This document shows, piece after piece, positions 832 through 63,970 of a stretch of DNA of 64,000 nt. Source of the stretch: Bilabrum cf. latius. Taxonomy: Eukaryota. The notes beneath the pieces were generated by a model. That model was not told the origin of the DNA. It worked only from the letters and a program-made list of their open reading frames with translations, and made no database searches. The DNA lies in NCBI GenBank assembly GCA_965178125.1, contig OZ237769.1, positions 62,001-126,000 of the forward strand. Direction: 5' to 3'. Position numbers and translations under genes: made by a program. Position 1 is the stretch's first letter. Each line of letters opens with the position of its first letter.

Positions 832-2608
832 TCAGTCCATGGCATCGATCTCCGCCTGCTGCACCACAGTGCCCTGCACCTGGGCCGGTGCAGCCGCGCT
901 CTGTGGCTCGGGTACCTGTGCGCTAGAGGCTGCCGCGCTGGCGTGCATCAGCTCTACCAGCGATGGGCCTGTGCTGCCGTGCGATGCACCCTCATCCTCC
1001 TTGCTCTCCAGGTGGGCTCTATCTGGGCCTCCCTCGACCTCCTCGCCCTCCCCCATTTCCCCACGCACGGCCGCGCTAGCCCCCTCTGCTTCCCCACGCC
1101 CCGTGTGCCCAGCCGGAGCAGCTACGCCTTTCGCCCCAGCACCGCTCCCGGCGATCTACTCGCCGTTGAAGGGGTTCACGCGCCGCCCCTCGGCATCCAC
1201 AGCCCTGCCTGACAGTGCCCTGTAGGCCGCAGCTTCGGCATGCGCGTCACGGGAGACACCCGCAGCACCGCCTGCAGCAGCGGTAGAATGCTCCGAATCC
1301 CCCGCCCCGCTGCTGGCACCCGAGCCAGGTGCCGCATCTCCCGCTCTCTTACTTCCCTGCTCCCGCACCCTCCTGCCAGCCTCCTCCGCGGCCTGCAGCG
1401 CCTGCGCCACAGTCACTTTGCCCACCGGTTCCTTGCTCCCGTCATCAAAGGCCACCCCCTCCTCCCTCGCCCGCTCCCTTGCCCGGTCAGCGTCCCCCTC
1501 CAACGAGGCCAGGAAAGCCTCCTGCCTCGCCCGCTCCTCCTCCGCGTCCCTGCCCCTTGCCATCATCTGGGAGAAGGCCTGGAAGCGGCGCTCCTCGGCG
1601 GCCCGCTTCTCCTCTCCCTACCTCAGCCGCTCCAGCCGCTCCGCCTCCAGCGCGGCCTTCGCCCCCCCTTGTTCCATGCCCCTGGCCCAGGCCTCGCACC
1701 GGAGCCGCTCATCATCGAACACCGGCCTGTCGTCCAGAAACTTGAGCCCGGGAAGGCGCGCGATGACCGTTTTGCGATAATTTTTGATGCGCCTGACCAC
1801 TGGGTTGCCCTGCAGGTAGAGCACCCTGAGGGCTGGCAGCTTCTCTAGCACCTCGGGGAGGACGGCGGGGTCGTCGATGTCGTTGTCTTGGATGTCCAGC
1901 ACCGAGATGGTCCTGCACTCAACGACACCAGCCAGGTCCTCAGCCGACTACAGCCCGTTTCTCGCCAGGTTCAGCGTCTCAAGCGATGAGAGACCCTCGA
2001 GATCGCCTTCCTCAACGCTCTCGATGCAGTTCTGGCGAAGGTTCAGAGAGGACAGCTTTGACTGCGCGTGAGGAGCAGCGAGAGAGACGATCCGCTAGTG
2101 GTGTGGACTGAGCAAAAAATGACCTTACTGCAGGCGAAAATTCGCTTGCTGTCCTCACCATGTGGGACAGTCCCGAGATTTCCTCGATGCAGTTTTCCTG
2201 CAAATACAGTGATCGCATATCAGTCTGCTTGTCCAGCCCCTCAATCGCGGTGAGACCATTGCCTTCTAGCCACAATACCTACGGACGGGTGACGAAGCCG
2301 GGAACGCGATCGTTGCAAATAGTGAGTGTTGCGACAGCCTTTTCGAACGGGCCAAGACTGGCTGCGGTGTTCTTACCTTGAGTCCCGTGTACGCTTCGAG
2401 ATTCTGGATAGAACGAAACCCCTGCGAGAAATGGAGTACAACCTTCGCATGCAGTCGGTATTCTTGAATGACGACATATCAATGGTCGCTGCGAGGCAGC
2501 GTGACTGACCTTGTAGTGAAGGTACATCACATCGTTCAGCCCAGGTGTTCTGTACCCCTTGTTAGCCTCTGCAATGCTTCTTAATACATCTGCGGTCATT
2601 TCTGGCAT
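832..2608 (-). CDS. DNAAF1: Dynein axonemal assembly factor 1 (LRRC50/ODA7-like LRR protein), about 497 aa, 4 exons
   Basis: Exons 2608-2510, 2421-2377, 2278-2159, 2061-832 with GT-AG introns give YRTPGLNDVMYLHYK|GFRSIQNLEAYTGLK|VLWLEGNGL...LRVLYLQGNPVVRRIKNYRKTVI...LKFLDDRPVF, matching the DNAAF1 LRR/LRR-cap pattern. In-frame TAGs at 1948, 1618, 1156; ends TGA. Confidence 0.85.
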
Positions 2609-3252
2609 GGTTTTCGTTTCTTGATGTAACGTGAATTTGGCTAGAACGGCCCCGGCAGTTCAACGACAAGTTGGACGAACCTTCTTGAACCTGGGTGAAG
2701 GTTCGTTCGATCAAAGGAACCTTGCCGCGCGAAGCAGCTGATCGATTTCGGAGCAGCTGCTTCTTCACAACAAACCAACGGCAACAGAGTATACAGCCTA
2801 GCATTAGCACATACACTTACATGCACGGACGAAAGTTCGATTGGCGTGCTGCAGGATACATGGCACCACTGGGTGAGCTGGGGATGTGGCGAATCCAGAC
2901 TACCATCACACGTCTTTCACCACGGCATGACTTCATATTTCGAAGTGCAGACAAACGTTTCGAAATGCTATTCAATTTTGCATTGCAGCCATCCATCCAA
3001 CTCTACTGCTGGTCCGATATGCGGCCAAGACAGCGCCAGGCCGATTGAAGGCGATGACAGTGGGACTGGCCTTGTCAGCTGCCCATGGATATTACCTGAT
3101 GCAGGCAGCTGCATCGGAGCAAGTTACCGAGGGCCATAATCCATCCTGGTAATATTTAAACGGGCAACTGGAGACAGAATCGTACCTGTGGCGGGCGAAG
3201 CCATTGCCTCATCAGGTGTGCTGGTGCACCGTCAGGGCTTGATGGGCCAACG

Positions 3253-4106
3253 TCATCTGCGGCCACTGGCATCCTCGGAGTCCTGCCGTGCCGTTCCAGT
3301 GGCAGGGTCATTGATGTTCCGATCTTCCTATCTAGAGCTGCTGCCAGAGGAAGTTTCGCTAGACCCTGATGATGATGGGTCTGCAGCAGGGGCTCCAATC
3401 AAGTGGGGGATAGAGGGCAGCAGCAGAACGGTGGCCGGCAGCCTGACGATCTCGAACACCTCCGTGAAGACGTATGCACCGGCAAGAGAAGTGCACCAAG
3501 GAGCCATGCTTCCGTCTTCATTCTGCGGCATTGAGCTGAGTATGCCTTGCAGGGCTGGCTGCAGCGCCTCGGGCAGGGCACCCACCAGCTGCTCTGGCTG
3601 GAGGCCAAAGTTCCCGTTCTGCGAGCCATAGAATCGAACAAAGAGAACTATGAGCACACAAATCTAGACAATTTATCTGCACCATCCCCAAGACAATAGG
3701 GGGAGACACCAGTAGCGACTAAACTATAGTGGCTCACCGCGTCGAGGAAGGCATAGCTTGCGGCCATCGGCCCAAGCCAAAACGGGCCGAAGTATATAAG
3801 CGGAAACCATAAGCCGAACCTCCGAAATAAGTGCTTGAACTTCGGCAGTACCCCATCAAGCGCCTAAACACTCTGCCATTCTTTCCTAAAGTTTCCCATG
3901 ATGTCCAAGCCGTGCCTATCTTGCTCGTTGGAGGAACTCATGTGGCGCATCTGGATAGAATTACAGGTAATACCTACTTGATTCAGAGCAAATGTCCCGG
4001 GAATCCTGAGATTGGAGACCATTGGCTGCGCTATACAGCCACCGGGCAGTTGCCTCTGCAACATGCAGCGCCCCGCGCTCCAACCAGCCCTCCCGCGACC
4101 TAGCAT
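3253..4106 (-). CDS. DUF1279/FAM210-like membrane protein with a probable mitochondrial presequence, about 244 aa, 2 exons
   Basis: Exons 4106-3738 and 3618-3253 (intron GTGAGC...CTCGCAG). FKHLFRRFGLWFPLIYF...YAFLDA|...AGAYVFTEVFEIVRLPATVLLLP resembles the DUF1279 pattern. TAGs at 3864 and 3328; ends TGA. Confidence 0.55.
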
Positions 4107-4270
4107 GCGGTTTTGTGGCACTACAATACTAGTACGGAACCTAGCGCGGGAGTTGACGAACTAGGTATCCTCAAAGTGCCCGCCAACACCCAGCCCCGAT
4201 GCTGCGATGACGAACGCGCGGCAAGAAACCGTGCTCAGTGCGCCCGGTGAGGGTACTTCTATTGCCAGTG

Positions 4271-7200
4271 ATGAGCTCACCAGGGTTATAGGAGCTACTG
4301 AATGATGTGGAGAGCGAAAACAATAGACATAAAACCGCCATGGAATGTGTGAATGCGGCAGATCCACCAACGCAGCTCGATTGTGACAACAGTCACAGCG
4401 ACGCTCACGAGAAGAGCCGCACACCAGACATAAATGGACATCGTAACCCCAACGCAATTGATGTCTCCATTGAGCGAGTTGAGATGCGTGGATAGCGTTA
4501 CTTGTGTGATTTAGACTAGCAAGCCCGTGGATTAATGGCAGTCGTCCAACTTGCCGGGCAGCGCGTAGCGCCAGGCAGGCGTCAATCGACTGATTTTGAT
4601 ACATATGAGAGCGATTTACGACAGGGTCTGCTATTTTCTGCGCATGCGACTTTTGCCCATCGACGAGAGCACCTCGGGCATGCGGCGCTTTTCCCGCCTA
4701 GGCAGCCGTCTGCGTGGCACGCCCAGGATTCTTCCCGGCAGGCATTTCTGGAAGAATTGTTCTCACTGCACTCCGATATACATGAGAGCGTCGGACGGGC
4801 CGCGAGCAGTCGTTCTGCTCCGACTGGCCTCTCGCCCGGCCGCCTGGGCACCTCAGCCGGCCGGCACGGTGCGGATCGAGCACCCGGCAGCAGCAGCAGC
4901 AGCAGCCTGCGATCCCACGGCAGCTGCGCGTGGCTCGCCAGGCTCCTTGCTGGTGGTGAAGATCGCCACGGAGCCAGCGGGGGCAACAGTCCGCTGGCTC
5001 CGTCCGGCCGGGGGCAGGCAGCCACAGCCCGGCGGGCGCGTGGTGCCAACGCAGCTGCTGCGGCTGGCTCGGCCGACTCATCGCCCGGCGGCGGAGTCAG
5101 CCAGCGGGCCATCGCTGCTCTGCAAGGCTCCCTTCTTGTCCCCGCCAGTCACCTTGTGGCCGTGGATGTGCGTGCAGCCCACGATGCAATGGCGCGGGCA
5201 GCGCAGGCCCTGGCTGGGTCGGCCTTGGGGGGCGCACAGGAGTCGGGCTTGGGACCTGGCGGGGGAGTGGAAGGGGTCGGGCTGGGGGAGGGACTTGGGG
5301 ACGACTGGCTGGAGGTGCGCGGGACCAGCTGGGGCCACTCACGGGGTGGGCATGGGGCAGGGAACAAGGTGGGGTCGTCGTCGCTTCTGGGCATGCTGGG
5401 ATTCGGTGGTGCAGAGGTGGGGGGTGCGGGAGGCAAGGGGGCTGCAGGTGTAGTTGGTGCGTCGCATGCGACTGGGGCTCTGCATGGTATCGCACATGCA
5501 TTGAGAGTGCACCTGGCGAGCGCATAGGCGGCAGATGCAGCCAGATCGATAGGTCTGCTGGCTTAGACGACGTGCCTTCCGGTCCTGGCGCTGTGTGCCA
5601 CTCGCGGTGCGCTGCAAGGCCATGGTGCCATCGGGGGGCTGGCTGCTGCTGACGGGGCGGTCATGGCGCTGGCGCAGGCTTTAGCTGCTGTGCCCAGCAC
5701 TCTAGATGCTGGATAGCTCGTGAGCGGGCAATCTCGGACCGAAATCGTCAGCTCCAATGGGAAGTAGAATCCAAGCCCGCCGGTGGACATCCATGCAATG
5801 GGCCTCGGTGCAGTGTCCATGCAGCTATGTGCCACTGCGGCGAAGCGTGCGGCCCACGTGTTTGGCAGCGCGCGGGGCGGTGTCTTGCTGTACGCGGGCT
5901 GGGTGGATAAGGGTAACAGCCACGACCCCAGGCAGCGCAGGTACAAGCGGAAATTTGTGCTGGTGGGCGTGTCGGTGCTGGGCACGAGCGACCGGATGGC
6001 GTGGCGGGGGGGTGCTGCCAGGCGGGCATCGGGCGAGCAGGGGATTGGTGCCAAGTAGGCGACAAGCGGGCCCGATCCGGGTGCACTGGAGCAAGGCGTG
6101 TCCCATGGCGCGCTGGGCTCGAGGGCTGGGTTTATCCTGTACGGGCCCAGCCCAGCTGCTGTGCTGCGGGCCAGCTAGCAGGACACGACTCGCATGTGGT
6201 TCGGACCCGGACAGCTGCGTGCCGTGCTGGAGGGCACCACATCCGGCAGGGACCCGACAACTGTGTCGATCCGAAGGGACGTGCTGCTGCAGGCGGCCGG
6301 GGGGAACAGCCAGCGTGAAGGCACTGTTGGGGGGCCGTTCGTGTTCCGCGTGTCTGAGGGCAGTCGGCCCGAGAGCACGAGATACCTGAGGCTGCAGACA
6401 AGTGTGGATGCCCTGGCGCTGGCTGCCGCGCTGGAGCACTGCTGCTGGCTCCTGGGCGTGTTCCCTGCAAGCCTGGCACCCCCAGGGCGGCGCCGCTCCT
6501 CCAGCCAGCACCCCTGCATGCTGGTGCCCGAGTCCCTCATGCAGTCGTGCGAGCCGGTAGCAGGCGCTCAAGTGGCGGGCCAGCAACGGATGGCGCGAGG
6601 GCGGAGCAGGGTTTCGGTGGCGTCGCCCCGGTCCTCTCAGGCATCGATGGGGGCTCTTGTCCGTGGTGGGCCGGGAGCTCGCCCGCTGCCCCCAGTGGTA
6701 GAGGGGGACAGGCGCGCGCGCTTTTCGTCCAACCAGTTTTCGCAGGTTGGGCGGCTGGCTGGCAACTCACGATCATCAGAGTTCGGACGCAGTCCTGCAG
6801 CCGCGTTTGGATCTGCTGCCGGCAGTACCACAGGCTCAGAGCCCAGTTTGGACACAGGAGCTACCGGCAGGTCGCTGGGGATGCTGGGCGACTGGCTCTC
6901 GAGGCAGTCGTCGTCCAGCACCGTCTCGACGCAGAGTGAAGGTGGAAGGGCACAGGCCTCCGCTTGGGCCCAAACGCATGGACCAGAGCTGTACGGGCAC
7001 CAGGCAGGGCTGCTGCAGGCCCTGTCTCGCCGCCCCAACGCAGTCGCTTGGGCGGCCCGGGCCCACAGGTTGGTGCAAGCGCCGAGGGATGCAGACAGTC
7101 CTTAGGAGTACGGAGCCGCCGTGATGAAGCTGCTGCAAGGGGGTCGGTGCCTGCCGCTTGCATGGGCCGTGGATGCAGCGAGTGCAGCGGCAGGGGGCCT

Positions 7201-10200
7201 GGAGGGGGCCTCCGACAAACACCTGGATGCTGGCGAATGCAGCGTGCAGCAGCTGCTGCGCGATCTAGCCCGGGATTCCGCGTGCATTGCATGGTCATGC
7301 GCCGCCCCAGCTGCTACCAGCGATGCTAGCGCGTCGACGGACGCAGATCCTCGGGTTGTGCGCCTGTCAGCGCCTCCCTCGGCGTGCGCCACCGCTAGCA
7401 CAGGCTCTGTGGTGTTAGAAGGCACCGCGGGGTCGAACGGTGTATCGTGCCCGTGCAAGGTGCTGTGGATGGGGGGCGCCGACCCACCTGGGTGCAGTGA
7501 GAGTAAAGAAGCGACCGAGACCGCCGGCACAGCTGACCCGAACAGTGCACCCCCATCCGTAGCGTTAGTAGATGCCTGGAAAAGGGGACGATCGCGTGAG
7601 GATACCGCGGGGTAGTCAGGGCCAGAGGATGACGGCGTAGGGAAGGAAGCTCCACCTGTTGCAAGGCAAGACAGCTCCGAGTCGGTTGGCAGGCTTTCCG
7701 AAGGGATCATTAGCATTGATTCGTCGGAGGGCGGGCAGGCGAACGGTGGGCCCGGCGCCTCGGTGGATGGCAGTGACAGCAGCAGCGACGGGCCTCGTGC
7801 AAACGGTCGTGGGCTGGTTGGCTCTGGGGACAGCTCGTCGATCCTGTCAGACGGATCCGGCAGCATTGATATCATGGACGTTCTACAGGACAGGCAGAGC
7901 AAGCTCGCGGACCTTCTCGAGCGCATGAGCTACCCGCGCATCATTGACAAGGCAGCGCCTGAAGAGCTTCATGCCGCTGCCTTGGCAGCCTTTCACTGCA
8001 GCCCAGAGCACTTCCGCGTGCCTCAGCACGCACATGGCGCGGCTGGGATCGTGGAGGGGCTGGCCGAGGCCATTGCAGAAACGAGCGCCGTCGTTGATTT
8101 CAGGCAGAAGCAATCGATCGCTCTGGAGGAAGGTGGACAAAGAGGGCAATCCATCAAGGGTCGCACCCCCCTCTCGCCCCATGACTGCCTCGATCTGTCG
8201 CTCGAGCTGCTGGCGCGCTGTGGGCGCACATCGCTGGGTGGAGACGTGTATGAAGTGCTTCGCTGGAGCCTCGGGCACCCGGATCACACGCTCGTGTGTC
8301 CACTGAGCCAGGATGGAGAGCCGCTGTGCTTCCAAGTGACGGACACGTACATGGGCCCCGCGGGCGGCGAGCTCGCCAACAGCAACGATGGTGTCTCACA
8401 AACTGCCGGTGGGCCAGCCGGCGCTGCTTCTGCTGCAGCAGCAATATCCCTGTCGATCCGACCCCATGAAACAGCTGCCACACATCCCACCGGCGTGTTT
8501 GTGCGGTTTTCCTGCTGCTTTACGTACAAGCTCGTCAACCTCGCTGCGCCGTCTGGGTTTGTAGGCGGTGTGGAATCGCCCACTGGCAAGCGGCACTCTA
8601 ACTAGCGCACGGGCCCGGCTGACTCCCCCGCTGGAGCATCTGGCGCAGGGTCTCCTTCGTACCAGCAGTCGATGGGCAATTTCGGCCCTCGATCTCGGCG
8701 AAGGCGCTCTTCGGTGCCTGATGCCGTGGCCATGGGCACTGTGGCGAGGGCACGCCTGCGGGGCGGGGGGCAGCCAGTCAGGCGGTAGGTAGGTGCTGGA
8801 CCTAGGAGGCTGGATCCCGCGCGCACGAAGCAGCGAGGAACCTGGCGCGCCCTCCCGCCTGGCCCGGCTCCGGGTCTAGAGTAGCGAGCCGCCGGGGAGC
8901 GACATGTCGAGACATCGAACAACGCCACGGGTCCCCAGCCCAGGCAGGCAGCTGGCGCCAGAGCTGGCATGTGGATCCAATCCCCCAGCCAGGTGGACTC
9001 TGGTCCAGGGCTTCGATTCGATAGATCTGCCGTGGCCGGGCGTCGTCCCCTGTGGGGCTGCGTGGCCGCGCACGTCTCTCGCACGTACCTCGTCTCTGAC
9101 GGGCTGCTGGTGCCCATCTAGGACGGTGTGGTGCGACTTGCCGGATGCATGCAGGGGCAGGAGCTCTCTCCGAGTGAGCTGCTGCGGTAGGCGTACGTGT
9201 TGTGGGATTTGTAGCCTCCTCCTGGCAGCGCTGCACTGCATGGGGGTGCACCTGAAGACCAGAGCCAGTAGATGCCGCCCGCCTGGGAGATCCCCACCGC
9301 GGTACAGGTGGAAACTGTGCTCCGACAGGGCACCTTGCTCCAAGGAATACCGATGGAAGGCATGCGCGCCGCCGCCAATGTTATCCATCGGGCGTGCGAG
9401 GAAGCTTAGAGGGGCGCCCTGCAGAGAGACTTCGACGAGCAGCAGGCTGCATACGTTGAGACATGCCGGCGGGCCATCGGCCGAAGCATGAACGGAGTGC
9501 AGCTGCAGATCGCCAAGGCGGCGAGACTTGGGATCGAGAAGGCCGGCCGAGCACAGCTATAGCAGGCGCCGTTAGGCGCACAGGTACAGGCTGGTGTGCA
9601 GGCGCATGATAGCGGGCAAGGGCAGCCAGTCGCTCAAGAGGATGCGCGCGAAATCCGAATGCGCCAGTGCTCGACATGCAACGGTCCATCCGCCAGCATG
9701 TCGCCGCCTGCCTAGTCCGACGCGTTGCAGCACGCCTCGGTATTGTGTGAGCACCGTGGACTCGCGACTTGTGACGTGGTACCTCGTGCTGGCACGCATG
9801 CGTATTCGGCCGGCAAGGGCGATGAGGGGGCTGGAGCCCAGGCGAAGGCACCATCTCCTAGCCCTGACCGTAGCCGCAGCCGCAGTCCCAGCCCAAGCAG
9901 GGATGCGGGCGAGGTGCCCACTATGTCTGCCCCGGTGTCCAGACCAGAGTCCCCAGCGATCGGCGAGGGGCAGGCCGCTGCCGCCGACGACGGCGAAGGA
10001 CACGGCGGCGCTGGACCGTCGATGCCGTCAGGAGCAGACAGGCACAAGCATAGCCGCGCATCGGCTTCGATTAGCAGCACGGTGAGCGGAGCGGTGGCGG
10101 CCGGGTGGAAGCCAATCGCGGCGAGAGGTGATGCAGGCGGGCACAGGGGAGCCTCGGGCCCTGCAGGGGCGAATGGCCACACCTCGACGGGCCCTGCAGG

Positions 10201-11512
10201 GGCGAATGGCCACACCTCGAGCCACTCATCCCCGGCCAACAGCATCAGGTCCTGGACCTCGTGGCAGCGGCTCGTCGACACTCGTCACATGGTGAAGGAG
10301 ACCCTGGGGCGCATGCGCGAGGAGGAAGTGCGCGCATCGAGCGCCCAACTCGCTTAGGCTACAGGGGTGCAATCGGCACAGGACGGTGCGACGGCACTCA
10401 AGCCAACGAGCTAGCCCCAAGAAGGTGTCCGTGACCCGGATGAGAAAGAGCAAGCGTCGTCCATTTCCCCCAGGAGCAGGCAGTCTCCCTCCCCTTCCCC
10501 TGGATCTGCAGCCTCGCCCCTGCTCGTGGGCTCCCTCCGGCGCATGACCGGGGTGGGGGCACAGCACCCAGGGCGCATGACCGGGGCGAGGCCCCTCCCG
10601 CCCGCTGGTCCCAGGACCAGACGCACGCTCGATAGGGGCGAAAACATGGCGCATGGTGGCACTCATAGACATGCAATAAGCATGCCCTCGTCCCTTGTCA
10701 GCCACGCGCAGCAAAGCCTGGACAGGCGCGCGGCTGGCAGTATCCGAAGGCACCACGCCGGGTCGCCTGGTGTGGGCACACACGCACCATCGCAAGCAGG
10801 CATGCTTGGGAAACACAAGCCAGATGATGGTGAAGCAGCCCCACGGAGTCGAGGCGGGCGAGGCCTTGCCCACCTGCAGCAGCCCACACTGTCTACCATC
10901 CGTCGCACCGAGGCGCTGGAAGAGGAGCGGAGGGCGCGGGATGCGGGGCTGCTGCCGGAGGCGGCAGACGGGGAGGCTGCAAGCCTATTCGTGCAGACGC
11001 TCCGGTCCTCAAAACCGTTGCAGGGGAAGGACCACGCGCCGCTTGTACCATAGAGCAGGTCGGGGGTGGAACCAGTGCACCCCGGTGGCGGCAATAAGTC
11101 AGGGCCTGGCTCATCCTCTCGGGGCATGAATGGTACCTCAGGGCCTGGCTCATCCTCTCGGGGCATGAATGGGACATAGCCGTCACGAGCGCCGGAGGAG
11201 GGGCCGCTGAGTGACGGCGCGCGGAGCAAGGGCGCGCCCACTCGATTCGCCTCCCTATAGAGGAGAACTGCCGGCAGGGGTGGGAGCAGCGCCGCAGGGC
11301 AGCATGGCGGGCAGGGTGCGTGGGCCTTTGAGACTGTGCACGCGTGGGCTGCAGCGGGCGATGCCGCCAATGGTCGGGCTAAGCGTGATGCAGCTGTCAC
11401 GAATCCGGGTGTGGTAGCCAAAGAGGTGTCTCGTGTGGCGCCTCGCAAGGTCAGGGGCGCGAATCGGCAGTCTGGCGGGAGGGCACGACGCCTGCGGTAC
11501 GACTTCGAGTGA
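4271..11512 (+). CDS. Large single-frame hypothetical protein (about 2413 aa) with a PH-domain-like segment
   Basis: Track ORFs 4307, 4535, 5783, 6194, 7121, 7763, 9725 and 10526 share one frame and are separated only by TAG (about 26; no TAA or TGA until 11510-11512). LLYAGWVDKG...RRYKRKFVLV near 5885-5965 resembles PH-domain strands 1-2. Confidence 0.7.
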
Positions 11513-29221: not shown

Positions 29222-29331
29222 AACAAAATTGATCTGTGATGCTTGCTATAACCAACACAATTTTCGTGGTGCGGATACGGTCCGTTGCGGGCCACGGCCG
29301 CAAACACGATACCAAACCGGAATCCTACTAG

Positions 29332-37119: not shown

Positions 37120-37202
37120 GGCGAACAGGGAATCGATTGTATCCAGCCAATAATCCAGCGGCCCGTGGCTTCAACTTGAAGGAACCTTCGTGAACACCAC
37201 GG

Positions 37203-48400: not shown

Positions 48401-49976
48401 CGCCACCGCCCCCCAGCAGCTGGCCAGCATGATCTCTCGCGGGTGCTTCACCGCGAGTCAACTCCTCCTTCTCCTCCTCCTCTGCCCCGCCACCACCCTC
48501 ATTCTAACTGCCAGAACCACCGCGGCCGATGCCCTCAACACCCCCGTTTCGGAATGCCCTGGCCATGGCTGCTTTGGCTGCAGTCCGCAACCGGTCGAGG
48601 TCCAGGCCCGGCACCTTGGCGCCTTGCCCTGCGCCTTGCCCTGCGCCTGCACCACCATCACCACTGGCACCGCGAGACGGTCCTGAAGAATTTCCCTGTG
48701 CCATCCTATCTACCGCTGCCCCTCTCTCTCTCCTGCCACCGCCAGAGGTGCCTTCATCGATCCCACTAGGCTGCCCCTGCCCCTGCCCCTGCCCCTGCCC
48801 CTGCCCCTGCCCCTGCCCCTGCCCCTGCCCCTGCCCCTGCCCCTGCCCCTGCCCCTGCCCCTGCCCCTGCCCCTGCCCCTGCCCCTGCCCCTGCCCCTGC
48901 CCCTGCCCCTGCCCCTGCCCCTGCCCCTGCCCCTGCCCCTGCCCCTGCCCCTGCCCCTGCCCCTGCCCCTGCCCCTGCCCCTGCCCCTGCCCCTGCCCCT
49001 GCCCCTGCCCCTGCCCCTGCCCCTGCCCCTGCCCCTGCCCCTGCCCCTGCCCCTGCCCCTGCCCCTGCCCCTGCCCCTGCCCCTGCCCCTGCCCCTGCCC
49101 CTGCCCCTGCCCCTGCCCCTGCCCCTGCCCCTGCCCCTGCCCCTGCCCCTGCCCCTGCCCCTGCCCCTGCCCCTGCCCCTGCCCCTGCCCCTGCCCCTGC
49201 CCCTGCCCCTGCCCCTGCCCCTGCCCCTGCCCCTGCCCCTGCCCCCGGCCGTGGGGTGCACTAACTGACGGGGTCACGGGGAGTAGCTTCCCTTGCACCG
49301 CTGAGCTGGGCGGGCCCCCAAGTCCCTCCAGTAGCCCAGCGAACGCACCCCCGCCGCCGCTTCGCTCAGCAGCTGCGACTGCCAGTGCAGAGGAGTCGCT
49401 CCTGGCACCAGGTTCGGGTTTACTGCTGGCTGTCGATCCTCCTTGAATGGTTCCATAAATCTAGGAGTCAGACGGTGTGTAGTCTTTGTTGCGGTCGCCT
49501 GGCGGCGGTCCGTCCGGCAATGGTATGTCGTCGTCATCAGGAACTTGAACTGGTACCATGTCTGCGGGATTTTTCTGTGCTTCATACATTGGCGACTCTT
49601 GCACCCGTGATCTGTTGCTGTTGCTGACAACACGAAGTCTGTGCGCGTCAAAAGTAGCGAGATCTCGCTCAATTGCCTCTTCCTACTTGCGTAGGTCGCG
49701 CGTTCGGATAACCCCTTCGGCTTCTGCTGGCTTAGATGCAATTGCTGATCCCGCTTCTGTTAATGCATGCGCAGTGTTAAAAACCCCTACTTGAGCTGCA
49801 GGCTGCACACTATGCGCAGCCAAGCGAGCGCTGCTCTAGTCTGTGTCGGGCATCTGCAAGCCTAACCTAGATCCTCCTGGTTTGCTCTGCGACACAGCAT
49901 CCTATCTACGCTATGATACAGCACCAACAGGTTGCAAACTTCTCAAAAATCCAGATACTCTCGGTGATGCTGACAT
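45423..49976 (-). CDS. Hypothetical coiled-coil, low-complexity protein (about 1517 aa) containing (Gly-Gln)79
   Basis: Track ORFs 48504, 48210, 47874, 46797, 45840 and 45423 share one frame, joined by about 11 TAGs. ATG at 49976 follows an A-rich context; E/R/A coiled coil at about 46900-47780; ends TGA. Confidence 0.65.
45746..45793 (-). repeat. 12-bp tandem repeat x4 (RKAN)
   Basis: tcgccttacgat repeated four times. Confidence 0.9.
48771..49244 (-). repeat. Perfect hexamer microsatellite (GGGCAG)79 encoding poly(GQ)
   Basis: 474 bp of uninterrupted CTGCCC on the plus strand. Confidence 0.97.
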
Positions 49977-53200: not shown

Positions 53201-56200
53201 GCCAAGCACACGTGTCAGGTGGGGATGGTAGGACACCTGTTCGGCTCAATATGGACAACGCTGTTCCTACGCCTGGTGCTGCTGCCATGGCTGGGATTGC
53301 AAGCAACAGTCGTGTCAAAGAGGTCGTGTACAAGCCTGCCGGTGCTGTAAATCTAGATTCAGCGAGCGAAATTGTCGCGCGCCCAGCTACCTCTGGTAGC
53401 CCCAACACAACTGGTAGCGCTGAAGCTATGAAATAGGGCGGGGGTTCGCCGGGAAATGACGCGCGGCAAATGTCGCCCACTACAGGTCTTGCAGGCGCGG
53501 AAGAGCCGGAGAATGATCGGGCCCTGGTAGTCGAGAACGATGCGGGGTATGGTTACCAGCTGGTGGCAGGGGGCGAGGACGATGGGGAGGGCGGGGAGGA
53601 CTCTCGAGCCTTCACCTATGCCAGCCTGCTCCTGTCCCAGCAGAGGCTGCTGATCTGGCTAAAATTATTGTTGCTTGGATTGGTGCTGGTGGAGGTGTTC
53701 AGCATCGATATCTCAGCCTATTAGGTGGTGTGCGGACCGAAGCAGCTGGGCGTCACACTTGCAGCCGCAGCTGCAGGGGCAGTGGTCCGCCGCAACCCCT
53801 CTGTGTTCCCCAGGAGCAGGGCTCGGTTCGAGAGGTCGCTGGAGCTGCTGGACCTGGACACGGACATGCAGGACCTGGGACATGACGCGGTGGCGATGGT
53901 GGCAGGGCAGGAATGCCACGTGGTACAGGAGTTTCATGCCAGCGATGGCCGTCAATCCGATCCAGAGCACAATTACGACGATGATCATGGTCCTATTGAC
54001 AGCCACAGCTCATGGCAAGACCACAACCACGAGCACGCGCACGCGCCAGACAGTCTGCGGCTCCTTGCACCCACGTTTACCAATGGGGGGCACAGCCCTT
54101 TCTTGCGGCATACGGACTGCGCAGCTGTGGAGCAGGACCACATTGAGCACGCTGCTGAAGAAGAGCCCGAACTGGTCGCATCTGCCAGTGCCCTGGGGCT
54201 AACCGCAGTTGCACTACCGCCGTCCCCACTCCTCGCACAGGCGGTGGCAATGCGCGTGACCTGGTCGATGGCGCCGGACTAGTCGAGCCAATTCACGGTC
54301 TATGACCCGTACTCGTCTGACGATCGGATCATGTCCTATGCCACGAGCAGAGCTCTATCTCCAATAATAGTCGTGATTATGGCTGTCTTACTGGCAAGGC
54401 ACGTGGCCCGGGTGGTCGAGGTGCGGCAGTCGACGGCGGGGGCTGAGGGCAAGCGGAGGGCGCTGGGTGCCATGCTGCGGCTGATGCTGCACGACACGCT
54501 GTCTCCGCTCAACGCGCTGACTCTCTCGCTGGAGGACGTGGAGGACGAGCTGCTGGCCTACCGCAAGTTCGAGGTGGACCTGTTCAAGACTAAGGGAGAG
54601 CTCAAGAAGAGAAAGGATAAGCTCCGCGATCTGCTGGCCAAGGCAGCCAGGAGGACAGCCAGGAACCAGTCCGCCTTGAGGTCTTACCCCACGCCGCGAC
54701 CCTAGCAGAATAGCGATGTCCCAGATCTGACCGAAGAGCAGTCAAGAGAGTCTGATGCTGCTGGCAGCAACAACCAAGACATACCTGCTGACGGAGTACC
54801 GCCCATGTCCAGGCAGGTATCCGTGGCGAGCACTAGCAGCAACAGTGGTGGCGGTAGACTCACATCTCACGGAGGCCCTGCCTACATCTCAGCCGAGTAG
54901 TCTAAGCAAAATAACCATGTGCAGGTGGCAAGTGGGCCACAAGACGGCAGCGTATCAGACCGTCCAGGCAGAAATTAGGCGGTCAGTGAAGGCAAGAGCT
55001 CCTATGACACAAGACAAGGCCGCAGCAGCGGCAGAGACACCACGAGATCCAGTGCCCCGTCGGAGCTTGCCCATCCATCGGATACAACGGATTCCACCGC
55101 GTATCAGCACGGATCTAGCTCAAGTAGCAGGATGCAGGTGGCCTCAGCTCGTCCAGATGAGGGCAGCCTCGGCTCTTTGCAAGGAGAGGTTGTGGCGGAG
55201 AGCAGCATGCAAGCGGTGCCGCAGCCAAGTATAGCAGCTGTCCTCGGAACGAAGATTGGTCGCCGCAGGAGCACGAGCGAGGTGACGACCACGACCACTA
55301 GCTCAATCAAGCCAGGGGCAGGGACAGGGACCAGGCCCCCAAGCAACAAGAGCACTAGTAGGAGCCGTTCGAGATCTCCAAGCAGGTCTAGTAGACGCAA
55401 GACAGTCAACCTACGACAGGCTGCCCAATCCGCCGACCCTGCCCTGTGCCAGGAGGCAGTTGCCATCCTGGTGAAGAGCAGCGGGCTGTCTCCACTGCCG
55501 CCCAGAGAAGTGCGGGCCGGTCTGCGGCAGCTGCGCAAGGACACGGCTCCCAGCATGTCGGCCAGCGCGGACAGCATCTAGACCGTGCTGCGGGACATGG
55601 TATCGCTCGAGGCCGCGCAGTCGGGTCGGCTGAAGATGGAGTTCAAGCCGGTCGAGCTGTCCACGCAGCTGCGGCGGGCCGTGAGTCGGGCGTTCCGGGC
55701 GTTCGCGATGGTGCGCGACGTGTCGATCAGCGAGTGGGGGGATGGGCTGGCGGACTCGCGGAGTGATCGGTCCCGTGAGCTTCAGTCGCTGAAGGGAGTG
55801 CTGCTGAATCCGTCGTTGGCCGCGTTCCTGTTCCAGGCGGTGGCGGGTGCTCTGAACCAGCCGTCCAGCCTGCATGGGATCGAGCTTGGCGGTATCGATG
55901 AGGGCGGGGACGACTCGATGCTGGAGAGCGAGGACGATGGAGAGGGCGAACGTGCCGTGCAATCGAGAGGCGGTGATGGTGAGGCTGACAGCGACAGCGA
56001 CGGGTCTGAGCTGGCAGTGGAGAGCGGTCACTTTGAAAGCAGCCGCAAGTCGAGGGGTGTCGGTGTCAAGGCCGGATCGGCAGGAAGTCCCGCAGAGGAG
56101 GGTGAGCCTCAGAACCTGACAGATAACTCTAGCGTGGTTCCCCGTAGCAACGGCGACGGCAAGCGCTCTTATGATGCCCGTAGTGTGATGCGAGCTGGTG

Positions 56201-59200
56201 TGGGCACCACGCCCGTCGAGGCAGTCGCTGGCGCGTCGACATCTGAATCCGGCGATTATTTTAACTACCCCCGTGGCACCAGCACTGACGTGTTTAGCTC
56301 GACAGCAGAAGCGGGTATCAGCGAGGCTGTGCCAGGGATCGCGGGGAGGAACAGGACCACCAGTGCCGTTGGGGGGTTCCCAGTGCAAGGACGTGGCCAG
56401 GCGCAAAGACAGGTCGTGGGTGGAGCCGGCAGGTCTGCCACATTTCGAACGCAGGTGCGGCATGCCATTCGAGGAACGAGGGGACTGGAGGTGGTACTAT
56501 TCAAGGCTCTGAAGCGGATCGACGAGATCAACCTGCCGCAGGAGGTGTGCGACTTCCCTCGGCTGCAGCAGTGCCAGGCCAACTTCGCCTCCAACGGGGT
56601 CAAGTTCACGGCCGCAAGGCTTTAGGCAGACGCAGCCAAGAGTCCAAGTCCTAAGTCCACCGGCAGCAGACGCTCTCTCAGCAACCCGCCAGGAGGCTCA
56701 AACATTGGATCTGGACCCAGCTCCCGTCAGATCATAGGGTCTGGGTCCCGATCCACAGGTAGCCCAGGCTCCCAGCAGCGGTAGATGAGCGGGGGGATGA
56801 GGACAGCTCATTCTGGCTCCATGGCCGAGGCTGGGGCAGGTTCGGTTGGCCCTACCTCCTTGGAGCCCATCAAGAATGAGAGCACGTCACTTGCTGCAGC
56901 TAGCAGCTCCCGCGCCTCGATGGAGCTATTGGTGGGGGCGAACAGTCGATCGTCTGGCAGTCACCTTCCTCAGACGCGGTCCAAGCTGGGTCGAGGGACG
57001 TCATATGACCAGCACCAGCTGCCAGGTCCCAGCATAGTTGGTTGTACGCCATCTGTAGTCGGCTTACTATCTGCAGGACAGTCGGGCAAGGTGCCTCGGC
57101 AGAGGAGCGAGAGGCTGCCAGCGAGTCGCCTCCAGGGTGTGGGGGGTGGATCGCAGGCCGGCGCTGTTGGAAGGCAGCAAAACCGGATGCCTGCTAGCAA
57201 ATCGCTGGAGCCTGGGTCTAGCGGACAGTCAACTGCAGGACACGATGGTGCAGCGCACGGCAATGCGTCCAGCGCTGTGGCTGTGTGGACGAGAGGGCGC
57301 CCCAGTGACCCACCATCCGTTGCCTCAATAGGCAGCAAGGGCAGCGATGCCATCTTCGTGGAGGCTACTAGTGCAGCGCCTGCTAGAGATGTTGAGGTCG
57401 AGAGCGAGCAGTCTCTCTCCGCCGTTGCAGCTGGAAGCACGGGGTCCAGGCCTCGAGTACCCATTGGCCAGCATCCGGCTGCTAGACGAAGGAAGGTCAG
57501 CAAAGACACCGAAGGCTCGACCACTGGTGATGCCTCACCTGCTGCGCCCAGAAGCAGCAATGCCTCTTTGTCCAGCGCTGCAAGTGGCGGTGATAGTGTG
57601 GGGGCTAATCGGCTGGGAACCACAGCGCCACCTCCTCGCCCCGCTGCAGCTGCATCCCGACAGCAGCTGCCCCCTGGACTAGTGGCGAGTGGCAGCTCGA
57701 AGGGAGAGGCCGGCATCGTTGTTGTTGCGGCTGAGCAGGTGGCTGACAGCCATGGCAGCGATTCCTATCGTGAAATCATGGACTAGTCCCCTGTCGATGG
57801 ACAGGGCGCGCCTATACACTCGCTGCCAAAAGTGCGAGACGCGTCATCATCCTCGTCCACTGGCGGGGGATCCAAACCGTGGCTCAGCTCGGCAGAGGAG
57901 TCCAAAGTCGGCGACAATTCGATGTCGTTGCAAATTGAGCCCAGGTTTGTAGGTGCCGGGTCTAAGTAGCGCACTGCATTGCAGGGTCGCCTCGACTCGA
58001 TGGACGCAAGTGTGGGTGGCATGTCGTTCGGGCATAGGCAGTCCATCGACAGCTCTACCCTTGGTACTGAGTTCACTCCGTCAGGTTTAGTCACAGGCAA
58101 CCAGCGAATGTTCCCGGAACTAAATTCAACCTCGAATCGAAGACAAGGTAGTGGTGGAGGGCCGGGCACCCGCAAGAGCGCCACCTCAGTGGCAACCTCT
58201 GTCGAGAGCGATGCAGGCCCCCTCTCCGATAAAGCGTCAAAGCTACTTGTCTCAACGGCAAAGTAGGGAAAGTCTCGGCGCGGATTCAAGCTTGGGCCAG
58301 CTGCGTATGACAACTCTGGTGTGTCCTCTCGCAGCAGCAGACCCACGTACAGCCAGCACACGGGCTCCTTCGAGATGCTCCACCAAGCAAGTCTGGCTGC
58401 ATCAAGCAGTCGGCAAGGCGCGCCCCCCAGAAACCGGATGCAAGTGCCCCCAGCCAAAAGCTTGCAACCAGCATCCGTGTCCCGCTCTCTGGTTTCCAAG
58501 GGAGACATGGGCGATGCCTTGGTTGTGGTGGGCACCAGCGAGCTGCCTCCCCCTCTGTGGGACCACGTGGCCATGCACAAGCAGGGCATACTGGGGTCGA
58601 GCAGGAGGCAAGGGCTGCATGCCATGTTTGAGCAACTAAGACAGGTGCTGCGCGTGCAGATGCGGCGGCAGCTGGGGGGTCATGCGACGGATGGTGGCGT
58701 ACTGCAGGAGCTGTATGGCACGATCGAGCCCGACCCTCTGCTGCAGCAAGGCTGGTACGCAGTGCCGAGGGGGGATGAAGATGGCACTGGGGGCCGGTCT
58801 CGGACCACGACAAGCACTGGTGGATTGTAGGCACTGAGCGGTATTGTTACAGAAGTGGTGACCTTGCCCAATGACCAGATGGCGAACACAAATGGCGAGC
58901 ACTTTGGGCGGCTTGGGTTCGGTTAGCCCAGCTCCGCTGCTCATGTTGGTGCTCTCACGGGAGGATCAGGGGGATCCACGGGCTCGGAAGGAGAAACTAG
59001 CGCAGGCGAGGCGTCTGCAGCGCATCGCAACTCTCGGTAGGGCAAGAGGAGGAGCCAAAGCCTCAGGCCAAGGGCAGGGCATCAAAGCAGGCCGGGCTTG
59101 CTTGCCACGGGCAATGAGGACCCTGAGCTAGAACCCAGCGTCAGCCTGCCCTTACGTGCCATGCAGCAGCGCGGGCTGATTGTAGCCCACAGCAAGCCTC

Positions 59201-62200
59201 GGATGAGGGAGCTGCAGTGCAAGTTGGGGGAGGCCCTCCGGTCCAAGCTGCAGCCGTTGGTACTGAGTGCCTCAAAGGGCAGCAAGGGTCAGGTGGCGGT
59301 GCTGCTGGGCAGCTGGCTGGCACAGCAAGCGGGAAGGGCAGCTGCAGCTGTGCTAAGGAAGATGCACAAACGCGTCCTCGAGACCTAGAGAGACCTGTTG
59401 TCCATGCGGGCGCAAGGAAGGCGACAAGGTCATGCCAGATCCAGCTCTGGCTTAGAGGATTCTTTACACGCATCTGTTGCAACTGGTGGGACAGACGCAA
59501 GCCTTGCTCGGCTCGGGCGACTAGCAAGCAGCGGAACAGCCACTGGTGTTGGCGCTGCCATCGGGGACCAGGTCATGGGAGTGCAGTCATAGGCAGGTAT
59601 CTCCAACCCATAGGCTGGGCAATCGGGCTCTCTTCGAGTGAGCACTGAAGTAGGCAGCAGCAGCAGCGGCGGGGCAGGGCACGCACGACGGGAACTCGAC
59701 TCATCGTATCGACCCCCTTCTGTGCTGATGGAAAGCAGCTCGGACCAACGGGACGGGGCCCAGGGTACGTCGTCCAAAAAGTACACCACCATTGGCTCAG
59801 AGTAGGGTACCATGGGTTCCTTCATCCTGCCCTCGAGAGGTGCAACTGCCGACGCACCGGAGGGCACCACAGCAACACAAGGACCGGGTGTCACACACCG
59901 TAGTGCAGTGCAACAGGTAGGTCCAGTTGCAGGCAATGCTTAGGGAATTGATTCTGCTTCCAGTGAGAACAGCTCGGACGTGGATGATCGAGCATCCAGG
60001 ATGATCCCCACACCGTACGGTGGTGGCCCGGCGCATGGAGCACGCCTATCCGGGTCGGTCAAGTCAGGAAACAAGACGGGAAGGACACGGTTCACCAGTG
60101 CCGCTTTAAAGAAATCGTTAAATTCCAATCTGGAGGCTGTTTCCGGTCGTGATGGTGAGAGCACAGGCACAAGGTAGAGCCAAGGACGGCACGCAGGCGG
60201 CAGCCGGAGACGCGGTGCACCGACGAAAGATCAAAACACGGATCGAATGGTGAAACTCGTCGAGTAGATGGCCAAGCTGGCGGCCGAGGCCCGCAAGTTC
60301 CGCATGGTCAGTTTCTGGGTCTGGGACCGGGGCGTGGGTGTGCAGGCCTCGGCGAGGCACAAGCTGTTCAAGCCCTTCTCGCAGATCGACGCGAATCTGC
60401 AACAGGGAGGCAAGGGCAGTGGGCTGGGACTGGCCATCACGGAGAGCATCGTGAAGCTGCACGGGGGCGTGTGCGGCTTCTTGTCGGCGCCTGGTCACGG
60501 CAGCATATTCTGGGCGTGGGTGCGATGCCAGTCGGCAGCTGCCCCTCCCAGCGGTCTGGAGGAGTCAGCGGCAGAGGCAAGCCCGAACCAAAGCAAGACT
60601 GCTCGCGATATCAGATCCATGGCTTCCTCCGGCCCTGGTACCAGCGTTGAGCTGCTAGGATCCTCCCAAGCTACAAGGCCTAGCGGTGGTAAATCCAGCG
60701 GTGGCACAAGCGGAACGGAGACCAGGACAACCAGGACCCACGAATCTTCTGCTGCAGGCGATGCCAACGCTAGCGTGGTGCGATCGATGCAGCAAGACCT
60801 GGACCAGCGTAGTAGCAGCAACACCAGTGCGCTCGGTGCAAATGGCTCAATGCTCGACAGGCTCAGTGGAGGTCCGGCCAAGAGTGTGTTCCTCGCGCCT
60901 AGGGTGGCCCAGCAGAGGTCCATGGCCGTGTCTGCGGTAGGACCCGGCCCTCCAGCCCCTCTGGCATTGCCGGCACCTTTAGAGCCAGACGGTAGAATTA
61001 TCGAAAGTGAACCGGTAAATGGAATACTGAAGGGGGGAGCTGCCTCTATCCGCCGCGCTCTGCAGCAGATCGGCCCTGGTGGCTCCAGCTGGATGAAAGC
61101 ACTCGTGCAGCGAGCACTGCAGTACAATCAGACGGACCAGCCGTCCAGCCGCGATGCAGTCCGCGGTGTGACCGACCTAGATGCTGGTACCAGTGAGTCC
61201 CTGCAGATGGGGCAAGACGGCGTTGTGATGAAGCAAACCAGCACCAAGCGACACAAAGGGCAGTCCGGCAGGGGCAGCAGCGGGCATCAGGATCTGACTG
61301 CATCCCGGGAGGGGCGGTCCGTGCGGGAGGAGCCCTCGCACGTGCTGCGAGCGGCGGCTGTACCGTCCCGCATACTTCCGGGGCAAATTGTCGCTCCGCG
61401 TGGGGGTGCGGGCATTGTGCCTCGAGGCGTGTCGGGATACGGGTAGCCACCTGCTGGCCTCCCCATGCGCGTGCTGTGCGTGGACGACGAGCGGTCGAAC
61501 CGTAGATACATCTCCTCGGCGGTGTGCAAGCTGGGTGTGCCAGTGGTGCTGGAGGCCACGGATGGGCTGGATGCACTTCGGGTGCTGGGCGTGCCTGCCA
61601 GTCTGTTGCGGGCCGTGGCTAGCAGTGGGGGTATGCCAAGGCACCGGCAGATGCGCCGTGTGCTTGAGCGGGAGATGCGCGTGGGGATCTATGCGCGGGG
61701 AAGGCACTGGCAAGCGGGAGGGTGGGTGGAAGTGAAGGGCTCTACCACAACGTCTTCTCATGCGGGGGGCAAGCGGTCGGCTGCTGCTCTGCTTGCCGGG
61801 GACAGCCACGAGTCTATCGTTGGCAAAGAAGGGCAGTCCCATGACCGTCGTTGGCGGCGTGCGGGGTCGGACGGCACGGACAGCGAAGGTCCCGGTGCGC
61901 CGCTGACGCCGGCACTGCAGGGCATCGACGAGGAGACCAACACCCCCACGGAGACCGGCGGATTTGGGCAAGGTGCGACTGCTGGGCTATCGGACGACTC
62001 GGTCGGGGAGCTTGCGGAGAGGAGGCAGAGGGCACTGGGGCCTGGTGACGTTGTGCTGATGGACTTTAGCATGCCTCGGATGGGGGGTGACAGGTGCACG
62101 AGGTGCATCAGGATGGATCCGATGCTGGACGGTGTGCGCGTGATCGGAGTGACTGGGAACGTGCTGATCGAGGACCAGAACAAGCTGCGGAGGGCGGGGG

Positions 62201-62397
62201 CAGAGAAGGTGCTGCCCAAGCCGGTGCGGCGCGCGATCCTTCGGGAGGCCCTGAAGCCGCCCGAGGTTGAGAAGCGCAGCACAAACGAGCGATCAAGTTT
62301 ATCTGACCAGGCAGACGCCTCACCGAGTAGTCGGTTGGCGTACTCCGGACAGAAGGCTGGAGGAGGCGTGGGGTAGCTTGGACAGCCATTGTCATGA
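50293..62397 (+). CDS. Giant membrane-bound hybrid histidine kinase (TM region, HisKA, HATPase, receiver), up to about 4034 aa
   Basis: One frame over 12.1 kb with about 30 TAGs and no TAA or TGA until 62395-62397. H box LRLMLHDTLSPLNAL (~54480), LRDMVSLEAAQSGRL, N box DFPRLQQCQANFASNGVKFT (~56551), G1/F/G2 VWDRGVG..LFKPFSQ..GSGLGLAI (~60320), receiver VLCVDD..DVVLMDFSMPRMGG..IGVTG..LPKP. True start uncertain (alternative ATG 50479, or an upstream exon). Confidence 0.85.
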
Positions 62398-63970
62398 CTC
62401 ATGACTCATGTAAATTGTGGCATGCGCTAGGATCTGTGATCAAACAATCTCGTAGGCTGGTAGTTTATACGAGAGCGTTCAGTAACAAATATCCATAAAT
62501 GTTGACCCACCAGTACAGTTGCCCGTCAATCCAAAAAATAAAAATTAGGATCAGGAATCCATGATTCAGGATGGTGCTAAGAACAAAGGCAAAAAGAAGC
62601 ACAATTCAAAGTTGAACATCCGTGGACGTTGCAGATCCACGCCAGGATCAGCTTCCGACACGGTACCCAATGAGCTGCCTCTTGTCGGGCGAGCGTTCCT
62701 GATCGGCATCGGAAGAGCTGGCATGGCTGGCGCTTGATTCCTCCCTTTCTCCCAACTCTGGCGGCTTCAGGGCCTCCCGAAGGATCGCGCGCCGCACCGG
62801 CTTGGGCAGCACCTTCTCTGCCCCCGCCCTCCGCAGCTTGTTCTGGTCCTCGATCAGCACGTTCCCAGTCACTCCGATCACGCGCACGCCGTCCAGCATC
62901 GGATCCATCCTGATGCATCTCGTGCACCTGTCACCCCCCATCCGAGGCATGCTAAAGTCCATCAGCACAACGTCACCAGGCCCCAGTGCCCTCTGCCTCC
63001 TCTCCGCTAGCTCCCCGACCGAGTCGTCCGATGGACCAGCAGTCACACCTTGCCCGAGTCCGCCCGCCTCCGTGGGAGTGTTGGTCTCCTCGTCGATGCC
63101 CTGCAGTGCCGGCGTCAGCGGCGCACCGGGACCTTCGCTGTCCGTGCCGTCCGACCCCGCACGCCGCCAACGACGATCATGGGACTGCCCTTCTTTGCCC
63201 ACGAAAGACTCGTGGCTGTCCCCGGCAAGCAGAGCAGCAGCCGACCGCTTGCCCCCCGCATGAGAAGACGTTGTGGTAGAGCCCTTCACTTCCACCCAAC
63301 CTCCCGCTTGCCAGTACCTTCCCCGCGCATAGATCCCCACGCGCATCTCCCGCTCAAGCACACGGCGCATCTGCCGGTGCCTTGGCATACCCCCACTGCT
63401 AGCCACGGCCCGCAACAGACTGGCAGGCACGCCCAGCACCCGCAGTGCATCCAGCCCATCCGTGGCCTCCAGCACCACTGGCACACCCAGCTTGCGCACC
63501 GCCGAGGAGATGTATCTACGGTTCGACCGCTCGTCGTCCACGCACAGCACGCGCATGGGGAGGCCAGCAGGTGGCTACCCGTATCCCGACACGCCTCGAG
63601 GCACAATGCCCGCACCCCCACGCGGAGTGGCAATTTGCCCCGGTAGTATGTGGGACGGTACAGCCGCTCGCAGCACGTGCGAGGGCTCCTCCCGCATGGA
63701 CCGCCCCTCCCGTGATGCAGTCAGATCCTGATGCCCGCTGCTGCCCCTGCTGGACTGCCCTTCGTGTCCAGCAGTACTCCCTACCTGCCCGACCACGCCG
63801 TCTTGCCCCATCTGGATGGGAGTACCAGGATCAGAGCGGGGGTCACTTATTGCTGTAGCGTCAGTGGGCAGCATGTGGGTCGCGTTGAGCTGCGTCGCTC
63901 GCTGCATGAGTGCTTTCATCCAGCTGGAGCCACCAGGGCCGATCTGCTGCAGTGCGCGGCGGATGGAGGC
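61042..63970. repeat. Inverted duplication with arms at about 61042-62262 and 62760-63970
   Basis: Reverse-complement near-identity over about 1.05 kb (61204-62262 vs 62760-63814), plus a further similar block of about 70 bp; spacer about 500 bp. Confidence 0.92.

Follow-up and report, generated by a model that had tools for sequence, protein, structure and literature searches.

Which meaning does the codon UAG have in the nuclear genome of Bilabrum cf. latius? The question is raised by a stretch of 64,000 nucleotides (assembly GCA_965178125.1, contig OZ237769.1, positions 62,001-126,000 of the forward strand; hereafter the window), in which eukaryotic nuclear genes lie on both strands and TAG occurs repeatedly inside open reading frames (ORFs). 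A first-pass annotation of the window had proposed a nuclear code in which UAG is read as glutamine and UAA is retained as a stop. Our analysis points to a GC-rich, gene-dense nuclear genome in which UAG would be an ordinary glutamine codon, UGA the usual terminator and UAA not a sense codon, and we give this reading a probability of about 87%. Such a code would correspond to the pattern of genetic code table 15 (UAG as glutamine, neither UAA nor UGA as sense). The GC content of the window ranges from 58 to 69%, with an overall value of about 63%.

The reading frames respond to TAG and to no comparable degree to TAA. With the standard code, the longest stop-to-stop frame of the whole window measures 2127 nt. 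When TAG is read as sense, frames of 12105, 7299, 7176, 4596 and 3837 nt appear, together with further ones; the frames of 12.1, 7.2, 7.2 and 4.6 kb with TAG as their only stops, which had been described before, were recovered by a stop-to-stop scan (Table 1). Reading TAA as sense gives a longest frame of merely 2370 nt, and when both TAA and TAG are opened the four longest frames keep the length that they have with TAG only. Twelve long ORFs contain 103 TAG in 16,380 codons and neither an internal TAA nor an internal TGA. In the set of 13 ORFs used for codon counting, 101 TAG stand beside 584 CAG and 149 CAA in 16,548 codons, and TAG accounts for 12% of the glutamine codons. The earlier estimate of about 100 in-frame TAGs is therefore borne out; its count of 15 out of 17 models with TAG becomes 14 out of 16 in the present models, those without TAG being the LigB-like gene and a coiled-coil ORF cut at its 5' end.

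The TAGs sit in normal coding sequence, and are not introns or errors. The in-frame rate of TAG is 5.95 per 1000 codons, compared with 6.0 and 7.5 in the two off-frames, while TAA falls from 1.9 and 2.6 per 1000 codons off-frame to zero in frame. The off-frame rates of TGA are 14.5 and 17.0 per 1000 codons; the frame-comparison set holds three in-frame TGA, which should lie among its short, loosely bounded segments, as the long ORFs hold none. At these off-frame rates, about 66-79 TAA or TGA would be expected in the 4035-codon frame that contains neither. Within 10 codons of a TAG, the GC content by codon position is 0.68/0.54/0.65, against 0.68/0.56/0.71 for all genes, and all four delimited introns contain TAA or TGA. 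Because there is no in-frame TAA beside CAA and no in-frame TGA beside CGA, a general C-to-T process such as deamination, a sequencing artefact or broad editing is unlikely.

The identity of the amino acid was read from homologue columns, which were scored after translation with TAG as X. As listed in Table 1, TAG falls on invariant glutamine columns of five unrelated protein families. Four of these sites had been named by the first-pass annotation, with coordinates that proved right, and large sets of homologues confirm that glutamine is conserved there; the site in TMEM120 is a fifth, additional one. At the first GMP synthase (GMPS) site, Q is present in 100 of 100 motif-bearing homologues, the remaining 20 of the 120 not matching the motif, and at the acetylesterase site it is also present in the solved SIAE chains. 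The remaining alignable TAGs (14846, 16244, 36655 and 35353) fall in variable columns. Among the columns examined, no TAG stands on a conserved non-Gln residue, and none on a conserved S or L. A crude Codetta-like profile score over six columns, each with at least 10 homologues, gave a log-odds of +6.28 for Q and −6.25 for E, the next best residue. Since the invariant columns that bear TAG are Q, glutamate would be excluded, and the assignment of UAG to glutamine that had been proposed is upheld.

The ends of the genes tell the same codons apart. Of the 16 gene models, 15 end in TGA, one in TAA and none in TAG, so that no model needs TAG as a terminator, in agreement with the first reading of the window. 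UGA is the usual terminator, is absent from the inside of the 12 long ORFs and is not a sense codon. If TAA were a glutamine codon used in the way of CAA (149 of 733 CAR codons, 20%), about 26 in-frame TAA would be expected, and none was observed. Likewise, the four longest ORFs, whose limits are independent of TAA, contain 82 TAG and no TAA (probability about 1e-8 by our own arithmetic); therefore, UAA is not a sense codon. The proposal that UAA is retained as a stop draws its support chiefly from this absence of in-frame TAA, and termination itself is represented by one uncertain TAA end.

Further evidence comes from a close relative whose protein pieces were found in public data. A word-index search retrieved P0253, a protein of 949 residues from a Logan assembly, which is identical to the esterase-galactosidase of the window at 825 of 924 positions (aligned to 34286-37213, minus strand). 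It reads into the intron past DADVR and is therefore derived from genomic DNA. Opposite the three window TAGs of the aligned part stand E, Q and E, the Q being that of the GQSNM site, and the 949 codons of P0253 contain no in-frame stop. More pieces were obtained by an exhaustive search with kinase residues 2400-3599, a segment with 13 TAG. P0325 (173 of 213 identical) has Q and K at two kinase TAGs, the Q opposite 57967..57969 (+), and P0326 (96 aa, 89 of 96 identical) stops one residue ahead of the kinase TAG at 59386..59388 (+). The latter is most simply read as a standard-code gene caller having cut the protein at a stop-like codon of the relative, presumably TAG, opposite 59386. In two more distant pieces, P0327 and P0328, the residue opposite TAGs 60175 and 60265 is R. 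Over the six comparable window TAGs, the relative hence has Q twice, E twice and K once, and at the remaining one its protein apparently stops. CAG (Q), GAG (E) and AAG (K) each differ from TAG by one base, and these are the residues with which glutamine usually exchanges; they fit glutamine, although taken alone they would not exclude glutamate. With one of the six sites looking conserved, the comparison suggests that TAG sites turn over fast; either this or a lower use of TAG by the relative would account for the lack of stops in P0253. It also suggests that the code is common to at least two related taxa. A scan of JGI metagenomes with the esterase-galactosidase protein yielded five loci of 23-33% identity, none of them a close relative.

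One TAG can also be followed between two copies within the window. The 3' part of the kinase gene is repeated as an inverted, tail-to-tail duplication (61040-62265, plus strand, and 62756-63972, minus strand) with 1138 of 1230 nt identical (92.5%), and the TAG at 61444..61446 (+) is the same codon as that at 63575-63577 (−), kept in both paralogue copies. When the window was compared with itself for TAG-to-CAG exchanges between repeats, only this shared TAG of the inverted pair came up. The differences between the two copies are mostly concentrated in a single short stretch.

The share of TAG among the glutamine codons of a gene varies between 0 and 20%. The highest values mostly belong to long and poorly conserved genes in which the third codon positions are low in GC (20% in the 2413-residue ORF, 15% in the kinase), and several conserved genes have lower ones (6% in SUV3, 3% in the aminopeptidase); small genes break this trend. 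Two repeats illustrate the extremes. At 48771-49245 (−), CTGCCC is repeated 79 times with 100% identity and encodes about 79 Gly-Gln units of the 1517-residue ORF, in each of which glutamine is CAG and in none TAG. At 17881-17983 (−), near the 3' end of the SIR2_2 gene, a 27-nt repeat encodes four EGGQP(L/A)xK units, and in all four the glutamine is TAG.

By analogy with other UAG-only reassignments, UAG would be decoded by a cognate tRNA-Gln with the anticodon CUA, which lies one base away from tRNA-Gln(CUG). A CUA anticodon would pair with UAG and not with UAA, and UAA may be kept out of coding sequence because such an anticodon would not read it. By the same analogy, eRF1 would be without efficient recognition of UAG, yet still read UGA and UAA. 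Precedents for the tRNA exist: reading of UAG but not UAA by a CUA anticodon is the mechanism predicted for Iotanema (PMC5304391), and suppressor tRNAs with a CUA anticodon are present in two metagenome-assembled genomes (MAGs) with UAG as leucine (PMC11687900).

Several observations weigh against the glutamine reading. A tRNA scan and an Rfam scan of the 64-kb window gave no tRNA gene and no Rfam match, and the eRF1 gene lies outside the window. The sole TAA end, that of the aminopeptidase at 42800, is uncertain, as M17 homologues stop about 55 residues earlier. In column 14846 the 120 homologues have E 25, S 17, G 16, K 14 and Q 4 times, and the variable TAG sites alone would not separate glutamine from glutamate; E is also found at two TAG sites of the close relative. 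One TAG stands six codons ahead of the TGA of the kinase, and occasional termination at UAG may occur at some 3' ends of the 16 genes. This last possibility leads to a variant of the glutamine reading that we regard as unlikely, in which UAG would be glutamine inside genes and a context-dependent terminator at some 3' ends, as in Condylostoma, or as UAA is in Blastocrithidia. Context-dependent codes do exist (PMC5304391), 16 gene ends are a small sample, and, besides the kinase ORF with its late TAG, several genes have a TAG 3-23 codons past the TGA. However, none of the 16 models needs a TAG end, the TGA or TAA always lies past the last homologous residues where this could be judged (GMPS, SUV3 and alpha-galactosidase), and with TAG at 6 per 1000 codons, 16 genes should by chance alone include one with a TAG close to its 3' end. 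That TAG encodes glutamate or another residue is very improbable. It would suit the E at two of five comparable sites in the close relative and the rank of E as commonest residue in column 14846 (25 of 120), and a UAR = Glu code exists in Blastocrithidia, as it does in peritrich ciliates. Nevertheless, the five conserved TAG columns are Q in 120/120, 120/120, 100/100, 20/21 and 2/2 sequences, the log-odds separate E from Q by sign, and the E, K and Q of the relative are all NAG neighbours of TAG and common exchange partners of glutamine.

The remaining alternatives concern the other stop codons or the TAGs themselves. Reading both UAA and UAG as glutamine (the table 6 pattern of ciliates, hexamitids and ulvophytes), with TAA merely rare through the high GC content, has a very small chance of being right. 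TGA is almost the sole terminator here (15 of 16), like in the ulvophytes with TAR = Gln (PMC8271138), and the lone TAA end is uncertain; but the CAA share predicts about 26 in-frame TAA beside 101 TAG where none is seen, the four longest ORFs (82 TAG, no TAA, p about 1e-8) gain no length when TAA is sense, and off-frame TAA does occur at 1.9-2.6 per 1000 codons. A standard code with genomic TAGs repaired in RNA by U-to-C editing is highly unlikely as well. Upwards of 100 sites in 64 kb, all of them UAG, would have to be edited; in-frame TAA and TGA are not there to be repaired at all, and the relative has E and K, not just Q, at comparable sites. U-to-C editing removes stop codons in some plant organelles, and we know of no nuclear case on such a scale. 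An artefactual origin of the TAGs, be it assembly or base-calling error, pseudogenes or in-frame introns, is hardly credible, as one stop codon of three is affected, coding periodicity is intact around the TAGs, real introns carry TAA or TGA, the independent assembly of the relative ends an ORF at the same site, one TAG is common to two paralogues, and TAGs lie inside catalytic motifs with conserved residues on both sides. UAG as serine (as in Scotinosphaera) or as leucine (as in the rhizarian exLh and TARA ciliates) was also considered and rejected, with no TAG on a conserved S or L among the columns examined.

Where the organism belongs was approached with two genes. For SUV3, the best named matches have identities of 55% (Micractinium sp.) and 54% (Cafeteria roenbergensis); in a FastTree tree of 51 rows (the query, 21 hits with an organism or distinctive source label and 29 others, out of 120), the query falls in a polytomy without resolution. 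For GMPS, the best matches reach 71-72% and the best named one 68% (Symbiodinium sp. KB8); a FastTree tree of 120 rows, made without the chimeric and duplicated transcript P0009, groups the query with MMETSP and Logan sequences (support 56) and then with a clade containing Symbiodinium sp. KB8. The placement hints conflict, and neither single-gene tree places the organism. Chlorophycean algae typically have TGTAA as their poly(A) signal; here it was found within 400 nt past the stop for only 2 of the 16 stops. That the organism is probably a flagellate is suggested by an axonemal-type leucine-rich-repeat (LRR) protein and by a match to TPR_DNAAF5 that is weak (29.5 bits against a cut-off of 27), and in appearance it looks like neither a ciliate nor a fornicate.

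We lean slightly towards an independent origin of this UAG-only glutamine code, in a lineage that would be neither ciliate nor fornicate. Its genome is GC-rich and compact, probably that of a flagellate, and nearly UGA-only in termination, and the code would be common to it and one or more relatives with proteins about 90% identical. UAG as glutamine, and the table-15 pattern with it, is already known; what is new is a further case, in a GC-rich and UGA-terminating genome. Our literature search, whose coverage left out most subscription journals and supplements, brought up no GC-rich non-ciliate described as reading UAG as glutamine. If the independent origin holds, this would be the first such non-ciliate case whose tRNA-Gln(CUA), eRF1 basis and age are readable from a genome. 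Nuclear codes that split UAG from UAA are rare, and each case tests why both codons usually change together. The GC-rich, UGA-ending setting is the opposite of that of the UAA-terminating cases and so bears on which comes first: low usage of the stop codon, the tRNA with a CUA anticodon or the change in eRF1. There are practical consequences, too. Annotation of this genome and its relatives with the standard code would break about one codon in 165, and a public predicted protein of the relative already looks truncated at a TAG. Gene catalogues, orthology and the phylogenomic placement of the lineage hence need the correct code.

The genome is intron-poor, gene-dense and very compact. Short GT..AG introns were found in the GMPS, galactosidase, TMEM120 and LRR genes, and intronless genes reach 12 kb. 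Intergenic spacers measure about 200-320 nt (14345-14561, 17608-17803, 24963-25183 and 49976-50293), and the convergent stops at 17608 and 17803 are only 195 nt apart. In addition to the genes listed in Table 1, the window encodes TMEM120, BCAS2 and a LigB-type dioxygenase; two long ORFs are without a Pfam family.

Table 1. Reading frames, TAG codons at conserved glutamine positions and gene models of the window (position 1 is the first letter of the window)
Feature	Positions	Strand	Remarks
Longest TAG-open frames (one of four)	50290-62397	+	
Longest TAG-open frames (one of four)	4211-11512	+	
Longest TAG-open frames (one of four)	17803-24981	-	
Longest TAG-open frames (one of four)	45423-50021	-	
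TAG, helicase motif II DEIQ of SUV3	15047..15049	+	Q in 120/120 homologues and human SUPV3L1
TAG, amidotransferase motif GICYGxQ of GMPS	31846..31848	+	separate short exon, other frame; Q in 4/4 tblastn alignments
TAG, YGxQFHPE of GMPS	32295..32297	+	Q in 120/120 homologues
TAG, GQSNM of acetylesterase, adjoining catalytic Ser	36608..36610	-	Q in 20/21 homologues, D in 1
TAG in TMEM120 exon	39681..39683	+	Q in 2/2 alignments to solved TMEM120B and TACAN/TMEM120A chains
Axonemal-type LRR protein	832..2659	-	several exons; TAG in last and one upstream exon; TGA end
ORF without Pfam family	4271..11512	+	2413 codons; 26 in-frame TAG; TGA end
Alpha/beta hydrolase ORF	12570..14345	+	3 TAG; TGA end
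SUV3 mitochondrial RNA helicase	14561..17608	+	3 in-frame TAG; TGA end
SIR2_2-domain ORF	17803..24963	-	2386 codons; 15 in-frame TAG; TGA end
DNAAF5-like TPR/HEAT protein ORF	25183..28938	-	3 TAG; TGA end
GMP synthase (GMPS)	31285..33383	+	at least 4 exons, GT..AG introns; TGA end
Fused sialate-O-acetylesterase (SASA) and GH27 alpha-galactosidase	33632..37213	-	at least 2 exons; exon 1 with 4 TAG; TGA 33632-33634
M17 leucyl aminopeptidase ORF	42800..45094	-	1 TAG; sole model with TAA end
Gly-Gln repeat ORF	45423..49976	-	1517 codons; 11 in-frame TAG; TGA end
Hybrid histidine kinase/response regulator	50293..62397	+	4034 codons; 30 TAG; TGA end; HATPase_c and Response_reg C-terminal
Kinase C-terminus paralogue (response regulator)	62648..63919	-	1 TAG; TGA end

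Some of these genes deserve a remark of their own. The LRR protein, putatively DNAAF1-like, matched solved structures, and these matches held no informative column; for the alpha/beta hydrolase, no solved structure was matched. The two-domain fusion of esterase and galactosidase is also found in about 15 database proteins, including one of Oscarella lobularis and EukProt entries that are, judging by their labels, presumably from sponges and choanoflagellates. Two more tandem repeats were observed: a 41-nt unit repeated 28 times with 99% identity (39912-41061) within the intron between two TMEM120 exons, and a 27-nt unit repeated nine times with 99% identity (29990-30231, minus strand) that encodes nine nine-residue KEDKEGRTD-like units in the LigB-type dioxygenase gene.

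Split meanings of UAG and UAA are named for Iotanema, a rhizarian, Scotinosphaera, Protocruzia, and a few phyllopharyngean and other ciliates in PMC11687900 and PMC5304391. Outside the eukaryotes, TAG is read as glutamine under genetic code 15 in crAss-like phages (PMC9523058); these have bacterial hosts and termination by RF1/RF2, whereas the genes of the window are eukaryotic nuclear genes with spliceosomal introns. The UAR = Gln systems of many ciliates, hexamitin diplomonads, Streblomastix, Amoeboaphelidium and ulvophytes likewise involve a change from stop to glutamine, and in the ulvophyte orders Dasycladales, Trentepohliales and Cladophorales TGA is the working stop (PMC8271138), as here. 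However, TAA is also glutamine in those systems, while here it is absent from 16,548 codons in which about 26 were expected. UAG alone has changed, to serine in Scotinosphaera and to leucine in the rhizarian exLh and in TARA phyllopharyngean MAGs (PMC11687900, PMC8271138). A tRNA with a CUA anticodon is presumably at work in these as it would be here, but the amino acid differs.

The same pattern as in the window, deduced there, as here, from in-frame UAG codons that fall on conserved glutamines, is given for the ciliates Hartmannula sinica, Trochilia petrani and Protocruzia tuzeti, with UAG alone as glutamine (PMC11687900). Those ciliates prefer UAA as a stop according to the same source, whereas the genes here are GC-rich, up to 12 kb long and end in TGA, and in our judgement the window is unlike a ciliate macronuclear genome. 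A close likeness in code is that to Iotanema spirale (Fornicata), in which UAG is glutamine, UAA and UGA are stops and no gene is reported to end in UAG (PMC5304391); in both, UAG alone goes to glutamine and UAA and UGA are not sense, and none of the 16 models here ends in UAG. UAA is the predominant terminator in Iotanema (PMC5304391), in contrast to TGA in 15 of the 16 models here. The present genome further differs in its GC content of about 63% and in encoding the mitochondrial RNA helicase SUV3. Such a helicase is unexpected in a fornicate without a mitochondrial genome. Finally, Iotanema is represented by transcripts, its genome sequencing being described as difficult (PMC5304391, 2017), whereas the code discussed here can be read from 64 kb of contiguous genomic sequence.

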